NCBI GenBank assembly: GCA_963934385.1
Contig: CAWVYO010000046.1
Coordinates: 1-17,464, forward strand
Reading direction: 5' to 3'
Length of the DNA: 17,464 bases
From: an uncultured bacterium
GTDB taxonomy: Bacteria; Myxococcota_A; UBA796; CAJQPC01
Position 1 is the stretch's first letter; each line of letters opens with the position of its first letter. Shown piece after piece: positions 995 through 17,464 of the stretch. The position numbers and the translations under genes are program-made. The notes beneath the pieces are model-generated. The model searched no databases, was not told the origin of the DNA, and worked only from the letters and a program-made list of their open reading frames with translations.

Positions 995-2299
995 ATGGGC
1001 TTATTTGACAGAATAAAAGGCCAATTTCTTGATGTTATCGAATGGCTAGATGACTCGAGGGATACAATTGTTTGGCGATTCCCTGTAGAAAACAACTCCA
1101 TCCAAGATGGCGGAAAACTAGTCGTCAGAGAGGGACAGGCTGCCATTTTTATTCAAGAGGGCAAGCTCTCAGATGTTTTTGGTCCCGGAACATACGAACT
1201 ATCGACCAGACTAAAAGCCATCTCGGGGTTCTTTGCGAGTATCAAATACAGCTTCAATGACCCATACAAAGGCGATGTATACTTCATTAATACCCGAAGA
1301 TTTATTGATCAAAAATGGGGCACACCTAACCCTTTTACCATGAGAGACCCGGACTTCGGACTAGTGCGCGTAAGGGCTTTTGGTAACTTCACATACAAAA
1401 TTACCGATCCCGCGATGTTCCTTCGTGAAATTGTTGGAACCGATGGCAACTTCACTACAAGCGAAATCAACGGTCAATTGAAGTCAAAGTTACTGGCTGG
1501 ATTTATCTCGTCTGTAAAAGAATCGGGCATAGGTGTTGTAGATCTTTGTGGCGCTTACATGGATCTAGGCGACAAACTTACGGATGATATTTGTCCGATT
1601 TTCCAAGACAAGTACGGTATCGCGCTGACCGATGTAAACGTGAGCAATATTTCCCCACCCCCCGAGGTAGAGGAAGCTATCGACAAGCGCAGCTCAATGG
1701 GTGCCTTGGGCAACATGAACACTTACACTCAATATCAAGCGGCCAACGCAATTGAGGCGGCAGCAAAGAACCCTGGCGGAGGAGGAACAGCAGCGACAAT
1801 GATGAGCGCTGGAATGGGCTTGGCTATGGGCAATGTAATGACTAACCAGATGTCACAGAGCTCGGCTCCCCCTCCTCCCCCAACTAGCGCGACCTACCAC
1901 TACAACGGCGATGACGGACAAGGTCAGTTTTCGACAGCACAGTTAGCTGCAAAGATCCGCGCGAACCCAACCGGAACACATAACGTATGGCAACAGGGCT
2001 GGGCGGGATGGAAGTCATGGAGTGAAGTCTCTGAGCTCTCCGGACTGGTACCCCCTCCAGCACCACCCGTAGCCCCAGAGTCCTCTACTTACCACTACAA
2101 CGGACCATCTGGAAAGTCTGAGATGTCGGCGACAGAAGTCGCTGCCAAAGTCTCGGCAGACCCTAGCGCAGAGCACCTCGTATGGAAGGAAGGGTTCGCG
2201 GGCTGGAAGGCTGCGGGAGATGTCCCTGAGATAGCGAGTTCTATGTCATCTGGACCACCACCACTACCTAGCGGCGGGCCGCCCCCTCTCCCTAAATAG
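995..2299 (+). CDS. SPFH (Band 7, Band_7_1/YdjI-like) domain protein carrying two C-terminal DUF4339/GYF_2-like domains separated by proline-rich linkers
   Basis: The ATG at 995 has a GGAGG RBS. The N-terminal 230 aa is collinear with B. subtilis YdjI: 'MGLFDRIKGQFLDVIEWLD...TIVWRFP', 'REGQAAIFIQEGKLSDVF', 'PPEVEEAIDKRSSMGALGNMNTYTQYQ', and a Met/Gly-rich 'TMMSAGMGLAMGNVMTNQM' segment. The C-terminus has two ~45-aa repeats, 'YHYNG..G.[FM]S..[QE][LV]AAK[IV].A.P...H.VW..G.AGWK', that match the DUF4339 consensus YYxxxGxxxGPxxxxEL...TLVWxxGMxxW. The PPPPP, PPPAPPVAP and C-terminal PPPLP tracts are proline-rich. Confidence 0.85.
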   Translation: MGLFDRIKGQFLDVIEWLDDSRDTIVWRFPVENNSIQDGGKLVVREGQAAIFIQEGKLSDVFGPGTYELSTRLKAISGFFASIKYSFNDPYKGDVYFINTRRFIDQKWGTPNPFTMRDPDFGLVRVRAFGNFTYKITDPAMFLREIVGTDGNFTTSEINGQLKSKLLAGFISSVKESGIGVVDLCGAYMDLGDKLTDDICPIFQDKYGIALTDVNVSNISPPPEVEEAIDKRSSMGALGNMNTYTQYQAANAIEAAAKNPGGGGTAATMMSAGMGLAMGNVMTNQMSQSSAPPPPPTSATYHYNGDDGQGQFSTAQLAAKIRANPTGTHNVWQQGWAGWKSWSEVSELSGLVPPPAPPVAPESSTYHYNGPSGKSEMSATEVAAKVSADPSAEHLVWKEGFAGWKAAGDVPEIASSMSSGPPPLPSGGPPPLPK

Positions 2300-4182: not shown

Positions 4183-7100
4183 CTACTGCTCAGCGTTATC
4201 CCAGCCAGAGGCACATTCAGGATCTTGAGAATCCGAGAAACCATCAAAATCATTATCCAAGCTGTCATTACACTGGTAAGCGACGTTGTAACCGCCCTGC
4301 TCAGTGGCCGTTGTAGATGTTGGGCAGTCGGGATCATCTGTGTCCACCCAACCGTCAGAGTCGTTATCTAGCGTGTCATTACACTCAGTGATTGGATCCG
4401 CTTCATCTGAATCAACTGCATCAGCACAGCCCAGGTCATCGGAGTCAATCAAACCGTCGCTGTCATCGTCCAACCCATTGTTACACACATAAGAAGAACT
4501 GTAGCCCCCTTGCTCGTAAAGAGTAGCCGAAGTTGCGCAGTCGGGATCATCTGTGTCGTACCAACCATCACCATCGTTGTCGATCGTGTCAGCACACTCC
4601 GCCAAGTGGCTCTCATCGGCGTCAAACGCCGACTCACAACCAAAGTCATCGGCGTCAGTGTAGCCGTCGGCGTCATCGTCAGTCCCGTTGTTACACACAA
4701 ACGAGGTCTCATAACCTAGCTCTGTTGCACTCCAAGAACAGTCAGGATCGTCTGAGTCGTACCAACCATCGCCGTCGTCGTCTGCACCATCGGAACAGGT
4801 TGCGTCAGCCACTGTCGCCTCGAGGTTATCCCAAGCGTCAAGACACTCACTGTCTTCACTATCTACAAGAGCATCCCCGTCATCATCTACGCCATTGTTA
4901 CACTCCGCAGCACCTGTGTACCCAGCCTCAGCGGTCGAGGTAACACAGTCGGGATCTTCGTCGTCAATCCAGCCGTCGCTATCGTTGTCACTGGAGTCAC
5001 TACATACGGATCCAGGGTTGGTCTCAAGGCTATCCCATGCGTTGTCGCAACCTGTATCGTTACCGTCAGTGTAGCTGTCGTTGTCGTCATCGGCGCCGTT
5101 GTTGCACTCACTAGTTATAAAGCCAACCTCTTCGCCCACATACCAGCAGTCTGGATCATCGTCGTCGATCCAGCCATCGCTATCATTGTCAGATTGGTCA
5201 TCACAAGAGGTACCATCGCCCTCTATTACATCAAACCCCGAGTCACAGTCGCTATCGGTTGAGTCCGCATAACCGTCTGAGTCGTTATCCAGTCCATCGG
5301 AGCAAGCCACTTGCCAGGAGCCATCCTCGGCGTAACCTAACAAGCAGTCTGGATCGTCATCGTCAGTCCAACCGTCGCCGTCGTTGTCACTCGAATCAGA
5401 GCAGGTGACGTCACCGTCCACCTCTGTATCCATTAGTGCCTCTAGGCAACCTGGATCCTCCGCATCGGCGTAGCCATCGAGGTCGTTATCAACACCGTCG
5501 TTACAGGCTGAAGGGAAGGCCCCTCGCTCGGCGTTACCAAACATACAGTCCGGATCAGTGTCGTCCACCCAACCATCGAGGTCATCGTCAATGGCGTTGA
5601 TACAGCTACCTGCCGCAAGGGCGTCCTCCTGGTTAGCCCAAGCGTTCAGACACTGAGGATCGTCACCATCTACAAAGCTGTCTAAATCGTTATCAACACC
5701 ATCGTGGCAGGCTGTCGATGCGAAGCTGTTGTCCTCTGAAACTCCCAACACACAGTCGGGATCATCCCCGTCTATCCAGCTGTCAAAGTCATTATCTAAT
5801 AGATCGGAACACGTAGAATCTGGATCGGACTCATTACTGTCAATCGCAAGCGCGCAGCCCGAGTCCTCAGCATCAACAAGAGAATCTGAGTCGTCGTCGA
5901 TACCATTCCCACAGACAGAAGTGCCCCAACCCAACTCAAGACCGTATACACCACAGTCAATATCGTCCGAATCGATCCAACCATCGGAGTCATTGTCTAA
6001 CTCATCCGAGCATGGGTCAGTCGACGACGCACTCAGCTCGAGGTTGTCCCACGCGTCGTCACAACCGGTATCGTTTGCGTCGATGTCACCGTCGGAGTCG
6101 TTGTCAACTCCATCGTTGCATTCAGCCAAACCAGCAGCACCACCGGACTCAACGCCACCATTAAAGCAGTCAGGGTCCTCATCGTCAACCCAACCGTCGG
6201 AGTCATCGTCCGTACCGTCCAAACAGGTGGCGTCTAGAGAGTCCTCATCTTCATCGAGCGCGTCTTCACAATCCGAATCGTCCGAGTCTATGTCTCCATC
6301 GGAGTCGTTATCAATGCCATCGTTACAGACGACAGTGGTGAACCCGACCTCCTCACCGCTAAAACTACAATCTGGATCATCTGTATCGACCCAACCATCG
6401 GAGTCATTGTCTTCAAAATCTGTGCAGACTGGCTCTGCTTGCTCGTAGTCCTGCCAAGCCACTATGCAGTCTGAGTCGGCTGCATCTATGGTGCCGTCTG
6501 AGTCGTTATCCAGCCCGTCATTACAAGCGAAACTTGTAGTTGCAGACTCATTCCCCGTAGATAGGCAGTCAATATCATCTGCGTCTGACCAGCCGTCTCC
6601 GTCATCGTCAGAGCCGTTCTCGCAGTCATCCGCATTGTCGTCTTCGACAGTGTCATAGGCGCTATCGCAACCTGTATCAACTTCGTCTATTAGCAGGTCG
6701 CCGTCGTTATCCACGCCATCGTTACACTCGGAGTCACCGTACCCCAGCTCATCCTCATCTTCGTCGCAGTCGGGATCTTGGTCGTCGATCCAACCATCGG
6801 AGTCATTGTCTAGACCGTCGCCATAGCAGGTGCCATCTACCTCATCGTCATCGAAACCGTCGTCGCAACCGATATCGTCGAAATCAACGTCACCGTCACC
6901 GTCATTGTCGCTATCGTCATTGCACTCGCTAGATGAGGTTCCTAACTCTTCGGTTCCGGTTGAGCAGTCTGGATCTAAATCATCACGCCAACCATCTTCG
7001 TCGTTGTCTTCGCCGTCAGTACAGTCAGTCGACGAGGAGCTCTCTACGTCATCTAGGGCATCAAAGCATTCAGAGTCATCAGTATCCACAGATCCATCAG

Positions 7101-9261
7101 AGTCATTATCTAGTCCGTCGTTACACTCGGTTGCACCAACACCTGACTCAACATCCGTCCCGTCACAGTCGGGGTCTTCAGCATCTATCCAGCCATCAGA
7201 ATCGTTGTCCTGAAGGTCGTTACAATCAGTAGAGATGTCTGTTTCGTCGTTGTCACTACCCTCGTTACAACCAGGATCTTCTGAATCAACAAGCCCATCT
7301 AAATCGTTGTCGCTACCGTCATTACACGCAGACGAAGAAGTTGACGGTCCCTCTTGATTATCAGTTGCCGTACCGTTGCAGCCCGGATCGTCATCATCTA
7401 TCCAGCCATCGGAGTCATTGTCCACCGAGTCGGAACATGCATACTCTTGCTCATAGAGGTCACCAGCATCATCGCAGTCATCGTCAGCAGAGTCGATGTC
7501 GCTGTCGCTGTCATTATCGACACCGTCGTTACACTGAGTTCCCGAATACCCCGTCTCTGTGCTACCTGTGACACAGTCCGGGTCTTCAGCATCTATGTAA
7601 CCATCGGAGTCGTTGTCCAACAGATCTTCACACTCACCTGCCTCAACCGTATCACTGGCTGCAGTACAGACCGTATCGAGAGCGTCTATATAGAAGTCTC
7701 CATCGTTGTCTATCCCATCGTTACACTCAGTTGAGCCCCAACCACTCTCGGAGCTGCCAACCGAGCAGTCTGGGTCATCCGCATCGATCCAGCCATCGGA
7801 GTCATTGTCCACCGAGTCTGAACAGTAGTCTTCCTCAGCGTCGTCCAGCGCATTGTCACAATCTACGTCATCAGAGTCGACCTTTCCGTCAAAGTCGTTG
7901 TCCGATCCATCGTTACACTCAGTAGTGCCGTAGCCCGCCTCGGTATCTCCTGCATCACAGTCCGGATCGTCTAAATCGATCCATCCGTCGGAATCGTTAT
8001 CCAATGAATCAGAACAGGCTTCTGCCTCGGTATCGTCGGCTGATGAGTCACAGTCAACGTCGAAACCGTCGATATCACTGTCACCGTCGTTATCTAAACC
8101 ATCGTTGCACTCAGTTGAGCCCTCAAAGCCAGATCCTTCGCTCTCGCCGTAGATACTGCCAAGACAACCCAGATCGTCAATATCAATCCAAGAGTCTGCG
8201 TCGTTATCCAGCCCGTCTTCGCAGTCGTTAAACTCGGTGTCATCTAAGGCATCGGCACAACTAGGATCAAAGAAGTCAGTAGACAGATCACCGTCGTTAT
8301 CAACACCATCGTTGCACTCAACTGAGCCATAACCGACCTCTTCATCCCCAGTCGTACAATCGGGATCGTACACGTCAGTCCAGCCATCGCCGTCGTTGTC
8401 TACCTCATCGGAACATCCCGGCAGAAACTCTGTAGCTAATGAATCGATACACTCTGGATCATCGGAATCAGTGAGACCGTCGTTATCGTTATCCAGACCA
8501 TCATTGCACTCATAATCGGTATAGTCGCCGTTCTCTACACCCGCTACTAGGCACTCTGGGTCGTCGGCATCAGTCCAGCCATCGAAATCGTTGTCTAGAC
8601 CGTCGTCACAGATACTTATTTCTGATTCATCAGTTGCGACATCGCACTCTTCGTCCTCACGATCAATGAGACCATCTTCGTCGTTATCTAGACCGTCATT
8701 ACACTCGCCATCGCCAAAACCAGTCTCCTCAATCGAAGAGTCGCAGTCGGGATCTTCCTCGTCAACCCAACCGTCTAAATCGTTATCGTCTCCGTCATTA
8801 CAGGGGTGAATTGGCGTATCTAAGAGTGAAAACCCTGTGATCGTCACCTCTTGAACGGTCTGATCAGCAAAGGAGTATTCTTCGGTTGCTGGAGAAGATG
8901 CGATCAAAGTCACACCACTCCAACCAAGGGCCAAGAAGCTCATAGAGGGACTGTTGTTCCCCTGCTTCAGCTCTAATATTTTAAACCCCTCGTCCAGATC
9001 ATACAGATAGGCGGCCTCTAACTCGGGGTCGTCTTCTACCCAGTCAGCGAACAATAGAGCGCCCTGCTCTCCAGCCACTATCTCATCTCCAGACGAATCT
9101 AAAAACGGGCTGCTTGGATCTATAATAACACCAACAGCATCTGCCATTCCCGATAGGGCGCTAGCCTCCTCAGTATCGATTCCAACCAAAATGGAAGTGG
9201 GGGTCTCTGGAGCCGTACAGGCAGACAACAAGATCGCCAATGGGATAATATTTAACTTCAC
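4183..9261 (-). CDS. Giant (1692 aa) highly acidic tandem-repeat lipoprotein built from about 46 Cys-bracketed DxDxDG-type putative Ca2+/metal-binding 21-mers (MopE-like / thrombospondin-type-3-like motif), preceded by a ~150-aa N-terminal domain of unknown function
   Basis: The GTG start at 9259-9261 has an AGAGG about 9 nt upstream. A lipoprotein signal 'MKLNIIPLAILLSAC' gives a lipobox L-S-A-C. Residues 154-1690 consist of repeats with core 'C-[NS]-D-G-x-D-N-D-x-D-G-x-x-D-x-x-D-P-x-C', alternating between a 'DGW[IVT]D..DPDC' subtype and an 'ECNDG.DND' subtype. Asp and Glu are extremely abundant, Lys and Arg almost absent, and there are about 93 Cys. A long ORF running through a repetitive region with no frameshifts argues that this is a real gene. 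Confidence 0.9.
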   Translation of the reverse strand: MKLNIIPLAILLSACTAPETPTSILVGIDTEEASALSGMADAVGVIIDPSSPFLDSSGDEIVAGEQGALLFADWVEDDPELEAAYLYDLDEGFKILELKQGNNSPSMSFLALGWSGVTLIASSPATEEYSFADQTVQEVTITGFSLLDTPIHPCNDGDDNDLDGWVDEEDPDCDSSIEETGFGDGECNDGLDNDEDGLIDREDEECDVATDESEISICDDGLDNDFDGWTDADDPECLVAGVENGDYTDYECNDGLDNDNDGLTDSDDPECIDSLATEFLPGCSDEVDNDGDGWTDVYDPDCTTGDEEVGYGSVECNDGVDNDGDLSTDFFDPSCADALDDTEFNDCEDGLDNDADSWIDIDDLGCLGSIYGESEGSGFEGSTECNDGLDNDGDSDIDGFDVDCDSSADDTEAEACSDSLDNDSDGWIDLDDPDCDAGDTEAGYGTTECNDGSDNDFDGKVDSDDVDCDNALDDAEEDYCSDSVDNDSDGWIDADDPDCSVGSSESGWGSTECNDGIDNDGDFYIDALDTVCTAASDTVEAGECEDLLDNDSDGYIDAEDPDCVTGSTETGYSGTQCNDGVDNDSDSDIDSADDDCDDAGDLYEQEYACSDSVDNDSDGWIDDDDPGCNGTATDNQEGPSTSSSACNDGSDNDLDGLVDSEDPGCNEGSDNDETDISTDCNDLQDNDSDGWIDAEDPDCDGTDVESGVGATECNDGLDNDSDGSVDTDDSECFDALDDVESSSSTDCTDGEDNDEDGWRDDLDPDCSTGTEELGTSSSECNDDSDNDGDGDVDFDDIGCDDGFDDDEVDGTCYGDGLDNDSDGWIDDQDPDCDEDEDELGYGDSECNDGVDNDGDLLIDEVDTGCDSAYDTVEDDNADDCENGSDDDGDGWSDADDIDCLSTGNESATTSFACNDGLDNDSDGTIDAADSDCIVAWQDYEQAEPVCTDFEDNDSDGWVDTDDPDCSFSGEEVGFTTVVCNDGIDNDSDGDIDSDDSDCEDALDEDEDSLDATCLDGTDDDSDGWVDDEDPDCFNGGVESGGAAGLAECNDGVDNDSDGDIDANDTGCDDAWDNLELSASSTDPCSDELDNDSDGWIDSDDIDCGVYGLELGWGTSVCGNGIDDDSDSLVDAEDSGCALAIDSNESDPDSTCSDLLDNDFDSWIDGDDPDCVLGVSEDNSFASTACHDGVDNDLDSFVDGDDPQCLNAWANQEDALAAGSCINAIDDDLDGWVDDTDPDCMFGNAERGAFPSACNDGVDNDLDGYADAEDPGCLEALMDTEVDGDVTCSDSSDNDGDGWTDDDDPDCLLGYAEDGSWQVACSDGLDNDSDGYADSTDSDCDSGFDVIEGDGTSCDDQSDNDSDGWIDDDDPDCWYVGEEVGFITSECNNGADDDNDSYTDGNDTGCDNAWDSLETNPGSVCSDSSDNDSDGWIDDEDPDCVTSTAEAGYTGAAECNNGVDDDGDALVDSEDSECLDAWDNLEATVADATCSDGADDDGDGWYDSDDPDCSWSATELGYETSFVCNNGTDDDADGYTDADDFGCESAFDADESHLAECADTIDNDGDGWYDTDDPDCATSATLYEQGGYSSSYVCNNGLDDDSDGLIDSDDLGCADAVDSDEADPITECNDTLDNDSDGWVDTDDPDCPTSTTATEQGGYNVAYQCNDSLDNDFDGFSDSQDPECASGWDNAEQ
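4186..8802 (-). repeat. Imperfect coding tandem repeat: about 23 di-repeats of ~200 bp (about 46 21-codon motif units plus linkers) inside the giant lipoprotein gene
   Basis: The first repeat Cys is residue 154 (codon at 8800-8802) and the last repeat ends just before the stop. The nucleotide sequence is GAC/GAT/AAC/GGN-rich and recurs with period ~100 and ~200 bp. Copies are diverged, with no long identical stretches, which is consistent with an old array under selection. Confidence 0.85.
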
Positions 9262-10343
9262 GGTAGCAACACCTCTACATCACCAGTTGGTGCCGGTTCA
9301 GGCTTCATTGATTCGGCGACAACTGCCCCCGTGACACCCACTCCTACAGTTCCAGCACCTACAGCAGCCCAGAAGGTCCAGCGAGATGTAAGCGGGGATA
9401 TAATCTCCAGAGTCGAGCTGTCTGGTGATCCCTCCTGAAACAACGTGGCCCTGTAGCTTACTCTTCCCTCTCTAGGGACCCTCACCGACCGCTCAACAAC
9501 CTGAACTCCAGGAGCTTCTACCCTTACAAGGTAAGTCCCTCGAGCAATATCTAAAGAGACCTTAGGACCCTCTCCAATTAGATGACCGTCCACATAGACC
9601 AGGGCACTATCGTTTCCCGTCTTAACCAGAAGCTCGGGCGAATCGGCCACCATTGTGACCTGTACATCCCCCCTAGTACCATCAGACGTGTCGACCTCGC
9701 GCAGCGCTGTGCCATAACCTTCTAATTGGATACGCACGCGGTGAGCCCCACTCTCAATCTCTGTTAGACTCAGGGGAGTTACACCAACAAGTTCGCTATC
9801 TAGATATACATTTGCACCGCTTGGGTTCGAGCCAAAAGAGAACAGACCTTGGGATGACTGTAACTGCTCAAAAATGAGTACATTGGCTCCATCCGTGTAT
9901 GTGAAGCTTCCAGAGACTGGTTCGTGCTGCGGCGCAATCAATGTGAACTCGTGATCGCCAACGGGCATGTCACTAAGCCTAATAGGAGCGCTACCCATAG
10001 CCTGACCATCAACTGTTACTGTCGCGCCAGTTGGGGTCACCATAAACTCTACTGTACCGCTGCCAGAGAATAGCTCTGCAGATACTTCACTGGGAACGCC
10101 CTCCGATATACCAACCCTAGTCGCCCAGGGAGTGAAGTTATCCGCCACGATCCTTATTGAGTGACTACCTACAGTCAACTCACCTTCATACGGGGTGACT
10201 CCGACCTCTACGTAATCGACGTAAACATTAGCGCCATCAACGTTTGAAACAACCGATATTGTTCCCATTGGATCAGCCAAGGCAGAGGATCCTACGAATA
10301 GGCATATAGGCAGCAGGTGTTTGATGGTTCTTATCAAGCTCAT
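9258..10343 (-). CDS. PEGA-domain protein (4 tandem PEGA domains) with N-terminal signal peptide and C-terminal transmembrane anchor
   Basis: The ATG at 10341-10343 has an AGGAGA about 11 nt upstream. The signal peptide is 'MSLIRTIKHLLPICLFVGSSALA'. Four segments fit the PEGA pattern G-A-x-V-Y-V-D-G-x-x-[LV]-G-x-T-P...G-x-H-x-[VI]-R-[IV]: 'GANVYVDYVEVGVTP..GSHSIRI', 'GATVTVDGQAMGSAP..GDHEFTL', 'GANVYLDSELVGVTP..GAHRVRI' and 'ALVYVDGHLIGEGP..GTYLVRV'. The C-terminal hydrophobic stretch is 'WTFWAAVGAGTVGVGVTGAVVA'. The TGA stop at 9258-9260 overlaps the GTG start of the downstream giant gene. Confidence 0.85.
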   Translation of the reverse strand: MSLIRTIKHLLPICLFVGSSALADPMGTISVVSNVDGANVYVDYVEVGVTPYEGELTVGSHSIRIVADNFTPWATRVGISEGVPSEVSAELFSGSGTVEFMVTPTGATVTVDGQAMGSAPIRLSDMPVGDHEFTLIAPQHEPVSGSFTYTDGANVLIFEQLQSSQGLFSFGSNPSGANVYLDSELVGVTPLSLTEIESGAHRVRIQLEGYGTALREVDTSDGTRGDVQVTMVADSPELLVKTGNDSALVYVDGHLIGEGPKVSLDIARGTYLVRVEAPGVQVVERSVRVPREGRVSYRATLFQEGSPDSSTLEIISPLTSRWTFWAAVGAGTVGVGVTGAVVAESMKPEPAPTGDVEVLLP

Positions 10344-10405: not shown

Positions 10406-11206
10406 CTATCTGATCGCAATTCCATCGTGATAGATAGCCCAATAAACAGATCCTGCACCTAGAGAGAGTATTATCGGCAATGCTACTGCCCCCCATTGAG
10501 AGGGAGTAACACTCAAAATAACTGGCTCATAAACTGGAGCAGATCGCCCTGTCCTGGACGGCAACAGAGTCACCACCTCGACCCTATCCTCCATCCTGGC
10601 TCCTTCAACCTGGACTAAGTGACGCCCCGGAGAAAGCGATGAGATTTCCACTAATTCTTGATTTGAGATATTGCGCGTAACGCCATCAACTATCAACCTT
10701 GCAGCTGCTGGCTCTAATTCTACAATTAGATCGGCTGTGGTGCTAAACAGTAAGCCCGCTGCTGCCAGGTCGACCCCGCCTCCACGAGGTAGGTTCATCT
10801 GTAAAGGCTCTACAAGGAGCGCTCCTTCGGCTCCAAATATCTGTGTGTAGCCTATCTCTCTTGTACCCAAAAAACCTAATTCCACCCTCACCAGTAAATC
10901 CAAACCAAGGGACGTTACAGCGTCACGCCAACAAACTCCTCGTTCTCCGCAGCGCTCTCCTAAACTGGCAAGAATCCCCGCGTTAGAGCTTCCGTCCGAA
11001 AGCGAGGAGGTCAATTCGTAGTTGACGCTACCTCGAAAAAACTGCTCAAACCCCTCTACTGTCTTGGGGCTAACGGACACCGGAAGAGAGGCGTCATCAA
11101 CCACAGCCACCCCAACGCCCAAAGGCGCAGGCCAGCTCTCTACAGACTCTACAGCCTGTGAAACTCCACTCAAAAGGAACATGGGGATCAAGAGTTTCAA
11201 GCACAC
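10406..11206 (-). CDS. Secreted, membrane-anchored hypothetical protein with one PEGA-like segment
   Basis: The GTG start at 11204-11206 has an AGGA just upstream. The signal peptide is 'MCLKLLIPMFLLSGVSQA'. The PEGA-like stretch is 'ARLIVDGVTRNISNQELVEISSLSPGRHLVQVEGAR'. A C-terminal TM segment reads 'WGAVALPIILSLGAGSVYWAIY'. No other recognisable domain is present. Confidence 0.65.
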   Translation of the reverse strand: MCLKLLIPMFLLSGVSQAVESVESWPAPLGVGVAVVDDASLPVSVSPKTVEGFEQFFRGSVNYELTSSLSDGSSNAGILASLGERCGERGVCWRDAVTSLGLDLLVRVELGFLGTREIGYTQIFGAEGALLVEPLQMNLPRGGGVDLAAAGLLFSTTADLIVELEPAAARLIVDGVTRNISNQELVEISSLSPGRHLVQVEGARMEDRVEVVTLLPSRTGRSAPVYEPVILSVTPSQWGAVALPIILSLGAGSVYWAIYHDGIAIR

Positions 11207-11220
11207 TTTCCTAAAGCCCG

Positions 11221-11736
11221 CTACTGTAACAACCCTGACAATTCGGACTCAAGCTCGGACTCGAGCTGCCCGGCGTTCGGGGCTCCGACTGCAAACAGGT
11301 CGCCACTGGGGTCGATAATAAAGGTCATTGGCAGCATAGATACACCGTACCTCGCCGCAACAACACGATGATTGTCACGCAACACAGGGAAGTCTAGTCC
11401 CTGACCCTCGATCCAATTCGAAAGCTCACCGAGCTCGCCCTGATCAACGCTTACTCCAAAAACCTGAAGCCCGTCACGACGGTGGGAATTATAGACTGAA
11501 TTAAGTTCAGCCAACCCACTACCACCGCTATCTTTAGCAAAGAAATAGAGAACTACACTGCTTCGATTAGAAGGATCATCTGTAATCTCTGCCAAAGATA
11601 TCCTAGAGCCAGACGCTTCTGTTGTCGCCTCGTTAATAGCCGGAAGACTAAAAAGACTCGCTGGCTCACCTACACTTGGGACCTGAGCATTTGCGGCAAG
11701 AGAAAATAACAATGGAAATATTAGGCTCACGAACAC
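11221..11736 (-). CDS. Thioredoxin-fold (TlpA/ResA/redoxin-like) secreted protein with the CxxC active site replaced by SGGS, predicted redox-inactive
   Basis: The signal peptide is 'MFVSLIFPLLFSLAANA'. The protein is collinear with the TlpA/AhpC-TSA redoxin pattern: 'VVLYFFAKDSGGSGLAEL' corresponds to 'vLvnFWAsWCgPCr.E.P', so Ser sits at both Cys positions. Then 'GLQVFGVSVD', 'GLDFPVLRDNHRVVAARYGVSMLPMTFIIDPSGDL' and the cis-Pro 'LP' before the beta-strand are conserved. The annotated start is the GTG at 11736. The GTG two codons downstream (11728-11730) has better AAGAGG spacing and may be the true start. Confidence 0.7.
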   Translation of the reverse strand: MFVSLIFPLLFSLAANAQVPSVGEPASLFSLPAINEATTEASGSRISLAEITDDPSNRSSVVLYFFAKDSGGSGLAELNSVYNSHRRDGLQVFGVSVDQGELGELSNWIEGQGLDFPVLRDNHRVVAARYGVSMLPMTFIIDPSGDLFAVGAPNAGQLESELESELSGLLQ

Positions 11737-13057: not shown

Positions 13058-14587
13058 ATGTTACCCCTTTTTATTTGCCAACTTGTAATAGCGGGGGCTT
13101 TAGCACAGGAGGTGTCGACTACACAGCCTGTGAGCCCAATGGTGGTTACATCGGATCCTGCAGAGGAGATAGACCAACCTTTCGAGCTTCGGGGGGATCT
13201 TCGAGCAGAGTACCTTATCGGGCAACCAATCATCGTAACACTGACAGTAAACAACACCAGTTCTGAGCCCGCTACCTTCCAAAACCTGTCCGCTCGGCCC
13301 TGGCTAGTCCGATTCAAAGTCGAAACTGTTGACTCTCGGGGAAACTCGGGTCAAACACAGACCAGGTTTACAACCCCACCAGAGGTCGACCCCATGACCC
13401 TCTGGACTATTCAACCACGGGGCATGAGGACTGTAGACATTGAGATCCCTTCTGGAGCCAGCCTGGGTCTCGGTGATTACAATATTTCAATTGAGGTAGA
13501 TGGCCAAGCTGGGCTCTTCGAGATCCCCACAACCCAGGTATCGATACAGGTCACAAATCCTGTAGCAGATCATCTCCCTTCTGAGGTAATGGGAATAGAG
13601 AGAACAGGGCTTCACGCTACCTGGCTTCACCGAGCTGGTGAAGGTTATGACCTCTACATACACTCGGTGAGTGGTAATCAGATTGACGGAGATAGCTTCA
13701 ACACCCACATTGCTCACCTATCTGACCCAATAGACCCCACTCTTTCGCGCTCCTTACCGGCCCAAGCCCTAAACAGGTTCATATACTGGAGACATGGCGA
13801 ACGAGGAATCGGCTTTATTGAAAGTAACGGATCGTCGCAGAACAGAGTCGACACAGTGGATCTGCCTTACCCACAGGTTGAGCTGCTAGCCCGCGGGATA
13901 ACAACAACATCTGGCGAGCTACTAATACCTCTTTGGATACCGTCACCAGCGGGCATTACCGGAGAGGTTAGAGTCGCAGAGATAAAAAATGGCAGACTCG
14001 AGGCCATCACATCGGTTGTAAGGATGCGCTCCAAACCAGTCTGGACCGAATCAGGTATCGACAGCTCTGGGGCTTTGAGGCTTCTCTTAGGGCACAGTGA
14101 AGGAGTTGACCTATACACCCTATCTGCCGCCACAGGACTCCCTGCCCGTGGACTAAGGGTGATCCAAGGTCGTGGAACCTCGACCAGAGGATCCTTTGGG
14201 ATCTCAACTTACGAAGAGCAGCAGGGGCTCTCTGTAATAACTGCCAACATTTCTGTGGGTGAGGCAGTAGATACTGAACAACCCACAGATGTGATCGCCA
14301 CTCAATGGTGGACACTCAATGGTAATCTCATCGATACCCCAACTCCTGTTGCGTTACCGGGCAACGGGAATCAAATAGAGAGCCTATTGGCTGGCCCCGA
14401 AGGGGCTTGGGTGCTCAACTATAACAGCGAGTCAGGTGTGAGTATGTTTGCGGACCAACAGGGTGAATCCAGCTCCATTGAACCTTGGGCGAACCTTATT
14501 TGGGACGCCAACGGAGATCTATGGATCCGTACCGTTAACGGGCTCGCTTTTGGAACCGCTCCTATCTCTGTCCAACCACCAAACTAA
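13058..14587 (+). CDS. Secreted hypothetical protein (509 aa) of unknown function
   Basis: The ATG is 4 nt after the stop of the preceding gene, with GGAGA upstream. The signal peptide is 'MLPLFICQLVIAGALAQE'. I recognise no conserved motif. It ends with TAA at 14585-14587. Confidence 0.7.
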   Translation: MLPLFICQLVIAGALAQEVSTTQPVSPMVVTSDPAEEIDQPFELRGDLRAEYLIGQPIIVTLTVNNTSSEPATFQNLSARPWLVRFKVETVDSRGNSGQTQTRFTTPPEVDPMTLWTIQPRGMRTVDIEIPSGASLGLGDYNISIEVDGQAGLFEIPTTQVSIQVTNPVADHLPSEVMGIERTGLHATWLHRAGEGYDLYIHSVSGNQIDGDSFNTHIAHLSDPIDPTLSRSLPAQALNRFIYWRHGERGIGFIESNGSSQNRVDTVDLPYPQVELLARGITTTSGELLIPLWIPSPAGITGEVRVAEIKNGRLEAITSVVRMRSKPVWTESGIDSSGALRLLLGHSEGVDLYTLSAATGLPARGLRVIQGRGTSTRGSFGISTYEEQQGLSVITANISVGEAVDTEQPTDVIATQWWTLNGNLIDTPTPVALPGNGNQIESLLAGPEGAWVLNYNSESGVSMFADQQGESSSIEPWANLIWDANGDLWIRTVNGLAFGTAPISVQPPN

Positions 14588-14665: not shown

Positions 14666-15514
14666 CTATTCTTCGTCACCACAAAGGTCTGGGTTAGCTG
14701 TGCAGAACTCAAAGAGATTGTTGTTACAGAACGCTGATTCAAGAGCTTCGAACGGCTCGTGCGCCAAATCCATATTATCTGCATCGCGAGCTTCCGATGG
14801 CATAGTACACTCGGTTAGACCGCCAATAGAGCTAGCGATATCATTACATGCGCCATCTACGATAGCGAAAGCGTAATCTACCAATCCATCATCAAGGGGT
14901 ACTGAGAAGGTGTTGAGTACAACTGTGTAGCTCTTACCAGGGTGTACAGAGGTGTCAATTGTACAATACTCAATGGCACCGCGACCACCGTGGGCATCGG
15001 GAAGGTTACCGTAACCCGCCATGTAGCACTCGTTGAACTCAAGGCGGACCTCGTTCCCGAGAGAATCCTCGTAAACAGCAGCAAAGTCGCCCATTTCGTA
15101 ACCTGGCGAGCCTGTATAGTAAGCAGTAAGACCTACCTCTAGGTCAATGTCACCATCATCTTTGTAGTTGTCTTGGTATGAATAGTTTTCGGTTGGAGAC
15201 TGCGCACTTACAGACTCGTTCCAAAACACTGCTTCTGGGTCGACCATAACGCAAACCTCTCCGCCTGTTCCAGCGAAAGTCAAGGTCGTTCCACCGTACG
15301 TCCCTGCATCTGCAGCTCCAATGCGACCGTAGTGGATCACCTCTGTACGAGAGTCCTGGAAGTCTCCAAGCTCAATAACACCCATCTCTCCTAGATCCTG
15401 AACACCTGGGTAGTTAGGGTTTGGCTCTGAGAGATATGTACGACCTTCACGGTCACAAGCTGCCAGCGTTAAACCGACAACAGAGATGGAAACAATAGCC
15501 TTAGATATAGTCAT
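14666..15514 (-). CDS. Cys-rich lipoprotein of unknown function
   Basis: The ORF track extends to a TTG at 15533-15535 (the bases are CAA on the + strand). The ATG at 15512-15514 gives a canonical lipoprotein signal 'MTISKAIVSISVVGLTLAAC' with lipobox L-A-A-C, and an AGAGGA lies 8-9 nt upstream. That start also removes the overlap with the upstream gene, leaving a 4-nt gap. The mature protein has about 8 further Cys. Confidence 0.7.
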   Translation of the reverse strand: MTISKAIVSISVVGLTLAACDREGRTYLSEPNPNYPGVQDLGEMGVIELGDFQDSRTEVIHYGRIGAADAGTYGGTTLTFAGTGGEVCVMVDPEAVFWNESVSAQSPTENYSYQDNYKDDGDIDLEVGLTAYYTGSPGYEMGDFAAVYEDSLGNEVRLEFNECYMAGYGNLPDAHGGRGAIEYCTIDTSVHPGKSYTVVLNTFSVPLDDGLVDYAFAIVDGACNDIASSIGGLTECTMPSEARDADNMDLAHEPFEALESAFCNNNLFEFCTANPDLCGDEE

Positions 15515-15518
15515 AATA

Positions 15519-16436
15519 TTAATCCTCTGCTCCAACTAGATAGTCCATTCGAACACTTACCTCTGAAGCAGATAACTCGGCTGCCCTGTAGGAATCAGCA
15601 TCTGGCTCAGTGAAAACATACGGTGCTTGTACCGTCCAATCTCCGTCGTAAATGTACTTACTCGGGAAGTTGATAAGGTCTGTAAAGTTAGCACCGTAGT
15701 AGTAATCGTTAGAATACTCGTTATTCTCCTGACCACGATCTAGATCGCAAGTTGAAAAGGTGAAGTTCTCACTAGGTGAGTCCATCCAACCCCAAATCTT
15801 CATGTCTTTTTCGTAGGTAACCTGCCAAAGGTCGAACTCTGCCTCGTAGTCACCATCAGCATTCTGCTGAAAGTCCAGATCTGAGACTATGTTGCCATCG
15901 GTGTCTAGATATTCTGACAGGAACGACAACTCACGGTCTGTGGTCATCTCAAAGAGTTCGTAGCAGTATGCTCGGAAATACTCATCGGAATCTACAACCT
16001 GCCCGAACTCATCGACAACAGGGTCACCCAAGGTGTCGCTGTACCAGTTCAAGATGTCATCGAAGTTCTTAAAGCGACCAGTGACGATCCTACAGGAGAG
16101 GTCCGAGAAACAGGCAAAGTCGTAACGACCAACTGTTCCGCCACCATATGGGTAGGTGTTACCAGGGGTTCCATCTACAATGATGGGGCCCATCTCGGGG
16201 TGTGGGTAACCGAAGTCGTCAGTGCTTACACTTGGAAACACACCGAGGATAACAGGGCCGATAGCCCTCACATCTTCGACTTCTTCCGTATCGCCTGTCT
16301 TTGCGTCAGTAACGGTAAAGACCGCTGCTTCACGTGGTAGAACGACTGTACCGCGAACATCAACCTGAGGGAGGTGCTCGTCAAAGGTGCAGCCTGTGAT
16401 CGCGATAACCGCGAGAGATAAAACAAGTGTCCGCAT
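15519..16436 (-). CDS. Lipoprotein of unknown function
   Basis: The ATG is at 16434-16436. The signal is 'MRTLVLSLAVIAITGC' with lipobox I-T-G-C. Only 2 nt separate the upstream gene's TGA (16439-16441) from this start. There are 5 further Cys and an Asp/Tyr-rich C-terminal half. I recognise no family. Confidence 0.7.
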   Translation of the reverse strand: MRTLVLSLAVIAITGCTFDEHLPQVDVRGTVVLPREAAVFTVTDAKTGDTEEVEDVRAIGPVILGVFPSVSTDDFGYPHPEMGPIIVDGTPGNTYPYGGGTVGRYDFACFSDLSCRIVTGRFKNFDDILNWYSDTLGDPVVDEFGQVVDSDEYFRAYCYELFEMTTDRELSFLSEYLDTDGNIVSDLDFQQNADGDYEAEFDLWQVTYEKDMKIWGWMDSPSENFTFSTCDLDRGQENNEYSNDYYYGANFTDLINFPSKYIYDGDWTVQAPYVFTEPDADSYRAAELSASEVSVRMDYLVGAED

Positions 16437-16438
16437 AA

Positions 16439-17464
16439 TCAGTACTCGTATTTAAGTGAGAGGGCGATTTGAAGTGGGCTCTGGCGAGAGTAGATGAACC
16501 AACGGTTCTGTGTACCAATACCAGTATTTACAGAGTCAGCCTGCTGCGCGTTTATAGAATTCTGCAGCTGACCAATCAGCCACAGTTTTCCTCGACGAAC
16601 GTCGATAGCTTGCTGAGCCATCAGGTCGATGTAGTAGGTTGGCTCAGTTCTAGCATAAGTTCCAACGTGGTCTTTCAACTGTGCATTTCCGCCGTACCCT
16701 ACAGTGTAGTAGTAACGGGTAACAGGGTAGCCAGAGAAGTATGAGAACTGGAACCCAAGACGCGTAGTCCAAGGATCGTTAGGGAAGTCATACGACCCTG
16801 CCATCTTGATTTGGTGACGAATATCAGTTGGAAGGTTTCCGTATTTCAGCTCGTATTGGGGTGGAATAGCCAACCCTGAATCTGAGCCCGTCTGGATGGT
16901 ACCACGTGAGACGACATAGGAATATGTCGAGAGCAGCTGCCATCTGTCGGAGAAGTTCTTCTTTAGTGATACGTCTGTCTGGTAGTAGTCACGACGAGAC
17001 ACTGTTGGTGTCCTTAGTCGTAAGTACTGAGCAGTATTACCGTTTGAGGTACCTACGAAGCTGTAACCATCTTGATCCCAAACAACGTTTGTCTCATCAA
17101 ACACGTAGACATTTGATGTGAACTTTGCAGAGAAGTTCACGTCGAATACGATGTCTTGGTAAAGCTCACGAGCACCACCAATTGTGAACTCGTCTGAGTG
17201 TGGTGCCGTAAGGTGCTCACCAACTCGGTTTGTGTTCTCTAGTGGAACCTGATCGGCCTCTTCAACAGAAGAGCTTGTGAAGTTGTCGAACAACTCGCCA
17301 ACAAAGAGCTTGTAACCAAACCCCGATTGAGAGAGGTCATTCGCAACACCGAGGTTTGAGATGCTGTTAAAGCGACCATAACCACCACGGATAACCGTAC
17401 GCTCATCACCCCAAGGGTCCCAAGCCATGTAGAATCGTGGTCCAAGAACGCTAACATCGACAAC
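16439..17464 (-). CDS. Outer-membrane beta-barrel protein, C-terminal portion (5' end lies beyond the window); possibly TonB-dependent-receptor-like or another large OMP
   Basis: The reading frame stays open to the window edge: upstream of the first Met the frame reads '...VVDVSVLGPRFY' with no stop. The sequence alternates aromatic and hydrophilic residues in the manner of amphipathic beta-strands and is rich in Y, G, N, T and S. The C-terminus '...LSLKYEY' ends in an aromatic residue, the typical beta-barrel assembly signal. The family call is tentative. Confidence 0.6.
   Translation of the reverse strand, partial: VVDVSVLGPRFYMAWDPWGDERTVIRGGYGRFNSISNLGVANDLSQSGFGYKLFVGELFDNFTSSSVEEADQVPLENTNRVGEHLTAPHSDEFTIGGARELYQDIVFDVNFSAKFTSNVYVFDETNVVWDQDGYSFVGTSNGNTAQYLRLRTPTVSRRDYYQTDVSLKKNFSDRWQLLSTYSYVVSRGTIQTGSDSGLAIPPQYELKYGNLPTDIRHQIKMAGSYDFPNDPWTTRLGFQFSYFSGYPVTRYYYTVGYGGNAQLKDHVGTYARTEPTYYIDLMAQQAIDVRRGKLWLIGQLQNSINAQQADSVNTGIGTQNRWFIYSRQSPLQIALSLKYEY

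Follow-up and report, generated by a model that had tools for sequence, protein, structure and literature searches.

A strictly alternating array of 46 Asp-rich, putatively calcium-binding units in a predicted lipoprotein of an uncultured bacterium

We analyzed a stretch of 17,464 nucleotides from an uncultured bacterium (contig CAWVYO010000046.1, assembly GCA_963934385.1), which is called the window in the following. On its minus strand it carries a gene for an acidic protein of 1,692 residues, most of which is an array of 46 Cys-bracketed, Asp-rich units. Two unit subtypes, the odd-numbered W-type and the even-numbered N-type, alternate without exception over 23 pairs, as had been stated in a preliminary description of this DNA, whose pair count and coordinates proved exact. 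The features of the gene and its upstream neighbor are the following:

4183 to 9261, minus strand: whole repeat lipoprotein gene, from the list of open reading frames (ORFs) and the translation; GTG start; 1,692 residues; acidic
9217 to 9261, minus strand: predicted lipoprotein signal peptide and lipobox (MKLNIIPLAILLSA/C, Cys15), read from the sequence by eye
8803 to 9216, minus strand: N-terminal non-repeat domain, residues 16–153, about 138 residues, lineage-specific; aligns with the N-termini of the orthologs L003, L002 and P0001
4186 to 8802, minus strand: array of 46 units, i.e. 23 di-repeats of a W-type and an N-type unit, residues 154–1692
7918 to 8016, minus strand: example of a W-type unit, unit 9, residues 416–448, CSDSLDNDSDGWIDLDDPDC with the linker DAGDTEAGYGTTE; first unit of the W-N-W structure model
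7825 to 7917, minus strand: example of an N-type unit, unit 10, residues 449–479, CNDGSDNDFDGKVDSDDVDC with the linker DNALDDAEEDY
5107 to 6012, minus strand: units 29–37, residues 1084–1385, a zone with eight units (29–34, 36–37) that have no counterpart in L002; approximate boundaries from global alignment gaps and unit-level dynamic programming
9258 to 10343, minus strand: upstream gene with PEGA domains (Pfam PEGA, E 1.5e-48, 4 stretches)

The protein begins with MKLNIIPLAILLSAC, which reads as a lipoprotein-type signal peptide with a lipobox of the form L-x-x-C (judged by eye, without a predictor); a lipobox-like L-[SA]-A-C or L-G-A-C is also found in the orthologs L003, L002 and P0001. 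The array starts at residue 154 (nucleotide 8802) and ends with the last codon (nucleotide 4186). The 46 units were parsed on their Cys...Cys spans. The core of each is Cys-x18-Cys, 20 residues long, with unit 21 as the sole exception (x19, 21 residues), and is followed by a linker of 9–18 residues. The start-to-start spacing is 31–38 residues per unit and 64–71 per pair. Asp accounts for 27.9% and Glu for 7.1% of the array, which contains 92 Cys, exactly two per unit and four per W+N pair. For the N-terminal domain (residues 16–153) no Pfam match was obtained, and the domain alone had no homolog in a word-indexed search of 5.8 billion proteins. It is known only from the syntenic orthologs, with 31% identity to P0001.

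In a MAFFT alignment of the 46 units the subtypes differ in their cores as well as in their linkers. Trp occupies core position 12 in 22 of the 23 odd units and in none of the 23 even units (Fisher, 6e-12); the odd exception is a Tyr. The even units favor Asn at position 2 (20/23, odd units 3/23) and Gly at position 4 (21/23, odd units 8/23), and the odd units favor Pro at position 18 and Asp at position 19 (each 20/23, even units 6/23). Among the linker residues Ala (17/23 compared to 1/23) and Asp (19/23 compared to 1/23) are typical of the even units. Glu at alignment column 27 occurs in 19/23 odd and 2/23 even units, while column 29 holds Gly in 17/23 odd and 0/23 even units, and Glu in 2/23 odd and 22/23 even units. 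The linker motif ‘E.G’ is found in 19/23 odd units and 1/23 even units.

The mean amino acid identity of the units is 0.48 within a subtype compared to 0.37 between subtypes, a difference that was reached in 0 of 10,000 label permutations, and the identity swings with the lag between units (0.38, 0.50, 0.37, 0.49 and so on) up to lag 12. Average-linkage clustering without labels gave groups of 24 and 22 units, in which a single even unit was misplaced, and the split was unchanged after dropping the W and N columns. A pair of hidden Markov models (HMMs), built from the odd and the even units of the alignment, likewise labels the window protein WN x 23. The literal patterns that had been given for the subtypes matched, if applied strictly, 1/23 W-type and 5/23 N-type units, and never a unit of the wrong parity; they are consensus strings and not strict patterns. 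The W/N pattern itself is real and ancient.

The window protein belongs to a catalogued repeat family. The NCBIfam profile NF033662 (acid_disulf_rpt, ‘acidic double-disulfide repeat-containing protein’; 32 positions, curated cut-off 41 bits) matches it with 628.9 bits and E 1.9e-194 in 45 stretches, i.e. 45 of the 46 units. A Pfam scan of the window protein gave no family even at E ≤ 1, and a literature search on the name of the NF033662 family found no paper describing it. With a profile of a W-N-W triplet we retrieved, out of 1.84 billion representatives, 10,667 proteins at E ≤ 1e-3, of which 955 also pass E ≤ 1e-30; the acidic repeat is common in environmental prokaryotes. If two HMMs trained on the subtypes are applied to 120 homologs, 41 of them show at least 90% W/N alternation with the same linkers, and a period-2 signal was seen in 22 of 57 long arrays of related proteins. 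Among the 41 is a separate family (P0015–P0035, P0049, P0053 and P0060) of about 940–1,000 residues, many of its members near 950, whose arrays run WNWN... without a break and count exactly 16 units. Each array is preceded by a lipoprotein-like N-terminal region and followed by a globular C-terminal domain, and the unit number seems fixed there too.

The copy number was compared between the window and three syntenic orthologs, which do not form a strain-level series. A scan for loci with the PEGA neighbor gave one distant locus from genome contigs, L002, and from metagenomes L003 and a short Tara fragment. The orthologs are:

L003: marine metagenome, 1,692 residues, 46 units
L002: metagenome-assembled genome of a ‘Deltaproteobacteria bacterium’, 1,426 residues, 38 units
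L001 (P0001): JGI metagenome, 2,209 residues, about 35 units and LTD domains

The alternation is perfect in L003 too, which is 82% identical to the window protein at the amino acid level. Units 1–28 and 38–46 of the window pair one to one with units of L002, often as reciprocal best matches, and L002 is short by exactly eight units. At about 14257–14445 (residues 1078–1140), L002 has a W-type unit with a truncated linker of nine residues, followed by an N-type unit with Trp12; this oddity at the eight-unit gap is probably a deletion or recombination scar.

The preliminary description had further proposed a di-repeat of about 200 bp as the unit of expansion. Alternatively, a single 33-residue repeat was duplicated and the alternation was imposed later by selection or convergence, as neighbors must differ to fold or to pack. 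The absence of a co-duplication signal between W/N neighbors within the gene would suit this alternative: the Mantel correlation is about 0–0.14 and not significant, and the concordance of best partners, 1/23, is at chance level. Single-unit amplification also happens in the family, where other arrays consist of a single subtype with lag-1 identity about equal to lag-2 identity (0.6–0.75). Against the alternative stands the alternation of both subtypes and their linkers in unrelated architectures, as in the 41 of 120 homologs mentioned above. The eight-unit difference to L002, with alignment gaps of 138, 68 and 70 residues, argues in the same direction. Some related arrays moreover have a lag-2 identity of 0.70–0.75 compared to 0.30–0.38 at lag 1, a sign that di-repeats were copied there recently. 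We consider the single-repeat alternative very unlikely. An old W+N module that is gained or lost as a pair is well supported by the comparison between sequences, though for this gene it is not proven. The proposed unit of expansion is thus backed by the orthologs and by related arrays, but it left no trace of co-duplication within the gene, where di-repeat growth is deduced from the alternation and from the comparison with one distant ortholog.

Other expectations of the preliminary description concerned the DNA itself and did not hold up. It had suggested an array that is prone to collapse or expansion in assemblies and to copy-number variation from strain to strain, with a copy number high enough to matter, for example, for the length of a surface stalk. 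Such an array would be prone to recombination, and its copy number would tune the stalk length. The distant orthologs do have fewer units (38 in L002 and about 35 in L001, compared to 46 in L003 and the window), and the longest exact repeat within the array, shared by the W-type units 11 and 15, has 32 nucleotides. Yet Tandem Repeats Finder reports no array in the window, and the nucleotide identity of the units has a mean of 0.51 (0.54 within a subtype) and a maximum of 0.68. At identical residues the codons of different units are identical in a fraction of 0.48, as codon usage alone gives. The protein of L003 aligns to the window protein with zero gaps in 1,692 codons (5,079 nucleotides) at only 75% nucleotide identity. 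Conserved Asp codons are identical in 56% compared to 50% expected, which places the synonymous sites near saturation. A second contig from an independent ENA assembly encodes an identical protein of 1,692 residues. Unit number differs only between distant orthologs, and we regard a strain-variable, collapse-prone array as extremely unlikely. High-order periodicity of a protein does not imply instability of its DNA; in this case the copies have become saturated with changes at the DNA level, and the array length is conserved.

The 32-nucleotide repeat lies at 7400–7431 (unit 15) and 7787–7818 (unit 11), both copies sharing CSDSVDNDSDGWID; codon-shuffled controls reach 13–22 nucleotides. In L003 the counterparts of both units resemble each other less, which points to a small event of gene conversion in the lineage of the window.

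Within the locus the array ranks among the more constrained parts. The proportion of non-synonymous differences (pN) to L003 is 0.10, and the non-synonymous divergence (dN) of the array is 0.10 (cores 0.086, linkers 0.127), compared to 0.065 for aspS and 0.14 for the PEGA neighbor. Even oddities of single units are kept in L003, for instance those of unit 13 (Tyr instead of Trp), unit 21 (one additional residue) and unit 6 (unusual residues). Each unit is individually conserved under strong purifying selection. Four plus-strand ORFs within the array (4533–4943, 5729–6448, 6830–7213 and 7354–7734) were rejected as genes, as they lie opposite to a frame under such selection.

A hint towards the function of the units arises from their only relative in the Protein Data Bank (PDB), human teneurin-4's C-rich domain (7PLP), which was found with the whole protein by phmmer at E 0.0055 and with the triplet profile at E 9.6e-5 over 29 residues, aligned on an N-type unit. 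In the 1.5 Å structure three backbone carbonyls, together with E835, D840, D843, N844, D845, D847, D851, D854 and D856, hold three calcium ions (Meijer et al. 2022, PMC9058538). C838 and C857 form a disulfide, and two of the calcium sites resemble those of thrombospondin type 3 repeats (PMC9058538). If 7PLP is aligned with the units, C838 and C857 correspond to C1 and C20, and D840, D843, N844, D845, D847, D851 and D854 to positions 3, 6, 7, 8, 10, 14 and 17. The residues C1, D6, D8, D10, D14, D17 and C20 are invariant in all 46 units; D and N share position 3 (39 and 7 units) and position 7 (9 and 37 units). The unit consensus is C-x-D-x-x-D-[ND]-D-x-D-G-x-x-D-x-x-D-x-x-C. By this homology it is quite likely that the units of the array bind calcium.

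The predicted structure fits this picture. For four units, with 22 alignment rows that were all repeats of this gene, AlphaFold2 (AF2) gave a predicted local distance difference test score (pLDDT) of 73 and a predicted template modeling score (pTM) of 0.38. A W-N-W triplet, for which homologs supplied 54 of the 74 rows, reached pLDDT 87 and pTM 0.65; its linkers (84–93) scored as well as the cores, and it contains almost no helix or strand. The result suits a calcium- and disulfide-dependent ‘wire’ with a defined geometry between the modeled units. In a Foldseek search of the PDB, the four-unit model had only weak matches to teneurin-4 at E about 1 (7ban, root-mean-square deviation 1.1 Å over 23 columns), and the W-N-W model had no match. 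Among 1,211 distinct family units, which are not independent of each other, Pro at position 18 tends to go together with a hydrophobic position 12 in the same unit (odds ratio 3.5, p 1e-21). This coupling is a hint at packing of Trp12 inside its own unit.

The neighborhood of the gene offers a possible partner. Its start codon overlaps the stop codon of the upstream PEGA gene by four nucleotides (GTGA), and both genes are probably translationally coupled. The PEGA gene product is secreted and has four PEGA domains and a C-terminal membrane helix. The order PEGA gene, repeat gene and, downstream, aspS is kept in L001, L002 and L003.

Further upstream, at 11221–11736 (minus strand), a secreted protein of 171 residues with a thioredoxin fold is encoded (Pfam AhpC-TSA; NCBIfam ResA-like, below cut-off). 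It has no cysteine and carries KDSGGSG in place of CxxC, a redox-dead thioredoxin fold near a protein with 92 presumably disulfide-forming Cys. Between this gene and the PEGA gene, at 10406–11206 (minus strand), lies a gene for a protein of 266 residues with a signal peptide and, at its C-terminus, a membrane helix, for which neither Pfam nor NCBIfam gave a family; L003 has an ORF of similar size at this position. No NCBIfam match was obtained for the ORFs 13058–14587 (plus strand), 14666–15535, 15519–16436, 16439–17428 and 32–832 (all minus strand), and no Pfam match for the four of them that were scanned (all but 16439–17428). The ORFs 14666–15535 and 15519–16436 overlap by 17 nucleotides and have counterparts of equal length (289 and 305 residues) in L003. 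Divergent and near aspS, at 995–2299 (plus strand), lies a gene for an SPFH/Band-7 protein with a C-terminal GYF_2 domain, an uncommon-looking fusion.

We propose the following model. The host would be a marine, probably Gram-negative bacterium from the former ‘Deltaproteobacteria’, and the array would be part of a lipoprotein of its cell envelope. Each unit of about 33 residues is a Cys-bracketed, Asp-rich loop and shares homology with that half of the teneurin C-rich domain which binds calcium. A disulfide between C1 and C20 would close the loop, and the invariant Asp residues could hold two, possibly three, calcium ions per unit, which would amount to roughly 90–140 ions for the whole molecule. 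As two old subtypes always alternate, the W+N pair of about 67 residues would be the module that is gained or lost. Loaded with calcium, the array could form a continuous, ordered and possibly rigid chain of fixed length that is mostly neither helix nor strand. Anchored by its lipid, it might have a structural function in the envelope or on the surface and work together with the putatively co-transcribed PEGA-domain membrane protein. That the array of this lipoprotein is calcium-loaded, closed by disulfides and a structural element of fixed length seems to us reasonably probable as a whole.

The structural role, taken by itself, is proposed tentatively and a little short of even confidence. 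It is preferred since a defined assembly accounts for the position-specific conservation and the fixed length better than a buffer, a variable adhesin or a generic polyanion would. If the number of acidic sites matters and not their geometry, the array could be a cation sink, a metal buffer or a polyanion that nucleates minerals. It contains 539 acidic residues compared to 4 basic ones and about 28% Asp, calcium-type ligand motifs are present, and the source appears marine, as a Tara contig matches the PEGA neighbor at 100% over the covered part. A polyanion should tolerate substitutions as well as insertions and deletions, yet units, linkers and length are individually conserved compared to L003. 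Seawater moreover contains about 10 mM calcium, which would keep the sites permanently filled and leave little room for buffering. This role appears unlikely to us.

The array could also act as an adhesin, in which the calcium-loaded units bind polysaccharide, particles or other cells. Homologs fuse the acidic repeats to domains that are common in surface proteins (LTD, PKD, DUF11, IPT/TIG and pre-peptidase C-terminal), and the predicted lipobox implies that the window protein is lipid-anchored. However, the window protein has no recognizable binding domain besides the small N-terminal domain, and the repeat number of adhesins usually varies, while the window protein and L003 both have 46 units. 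Adhesion as the role of the array is quite unlikely in our view.

The structural reading may be extended to a fixed-length ‘molecular ruler’ or scaffold of 23 hetero-pairs in which each position is constrained, in place of a loose stalk of variable length. Its W-type units might have three and its N-type units two calcium sites, and the widespread prokaryotic module would be the source of the calcium loop of teneurin. This wider version seems doubtful to us.

Several observations weigh against the calcium-loaded structural array. The match to 7PLP spans only about 21–29 residues, and the Pfam models of TSP_3 and MopE do not match the window protein even at E ≤ 1. The equivalent of E835 has no fixed position, and the linker Glu that is conserved in both subtypes (19/23 and 22/23) is not located at −3. 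Asp occupies position 19, the equivalent of D856, in 20/23 W-type units but in just 6/23 N-type units. The subtypes may therefore differ in the third calcium site, which may be absent in half of the units; since the text of PMC9058538 does not assign ligands to ions, this comparison of the third site is our inference. From the single-subtype arrays in the family it follows that the alternation is not obligatory for the fold. The history of internal duplication is erased in this gene, as the paralogous divergence is too old. AF2 leaves out ions, and the packing of units and the shape of a rod are proposals that go beyond its scores. In the searchable literature we found no metal-binding experiment on any bacterial member, and a search on the DNDGDG motif and PF11617 returned teneurin papers only.

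The repeat family comprises over 10,000 protein clusters at E ≤ 1e-3, yet no characterized bacterial member was found in the searchable literature, and the gene is a clean and long example (46 units, about 28% Asp, 92 Cys) whose sequence allows concrete predictions. These are two to three calcium ions and one closing disulfide per unit, and a hetero-pair architecture with a conserved PEGA partner. The link to teneurin provides a structural template and bears on the origin of the animal domain, for which a prokaryote could have been the source of the loop. Otherwise the finding is descriptive and fits a repeat family that is already catalogued.

Compared to this family, the NF033662 model describes one unit of about 32 residues, and the alternation of two subtypes, the length of 46 units and the context of lipoprotein and PEGA gene lie outside its definition as far as visible. 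The family name implies two disulfides per repeat, whereas a single unit of the window protein has one Cys pair. The two-subtype organization, the 46 units and the strict conservation of length are undescribed in the searchable literature, and they refine a known kind of repeat. EF-hand proteins (calmodulin, troponin C) gave marginal profile matches at E 0.002–0.14 by means of the DxDxDGxID loop. In contrast to EF-hands the units lack a helix-loop-helix, with almost no helix in the AF2 model, and they are Cys-bracketed and presumably extracytoplasmic; the likeness is a motif resemblance only. The Cu-binding_MopE family (Pfam PF11617) has the DG-x-DND-x-DG core in common with the units, and the homolog P0097 is annotated as PF11617. 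The MopE-type motif has a Cys within its DNDCDG core.

The likeness to the teneurin-4 C-rich domain comprises the motif C-x-D-x-x-D-N-D-x-D-G-x-x-D-x-x-D-P-D-C, with the Asp/Asn calcium ligands and the disulfide C838–C857 at conserved positions of the unit. Teneurin, an adhesion protein of eukaryotes, has a single copy with six Cys in three disulfides (1-3, 2-5, 4-6) and a conotoxin-like tail, whereas the window protein has 46 tandem copies with two Cys each. Only C838 and C857 are matched, and the units have no equivalents of C852, C858, C863 and C869. The array thus corresponds to the N-terminal loop and not to the whole domain. The teneurin core was aligned with the MopE motif and related to a diatom enzyme by Tucker et al. 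2012 (PMC3278476), and the C-rich domain of animal teneurins was attributed to an algal or diatom donor (PMC3278476).

With thrombospondin type 3 repeats (Pfam TSP_3, PF02412; TSP-1, 1UX6) the units share Asp-rich DxDxDGxxDxxD loops that form almost no secondary structure; in the type 3 repeats these loops are wrapped around calcium ions and stapled by disulfides, as is presumed for the units. The Cys spacing and the motif lengths of the type 3 repeats are unlike those of the window units, and thrombospondins were not among the best 60 profile matches in the PDB. Their disulfides join neighboring repeats instead of closing one unit. The type 3 repeats of thrombospondins and COMP also occur in two motif subtypes, N-type and C-type (PMC10702128). 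By analogy, they are the nearest precedent for a calcium ‘wire’ that would be built from two subtypes.

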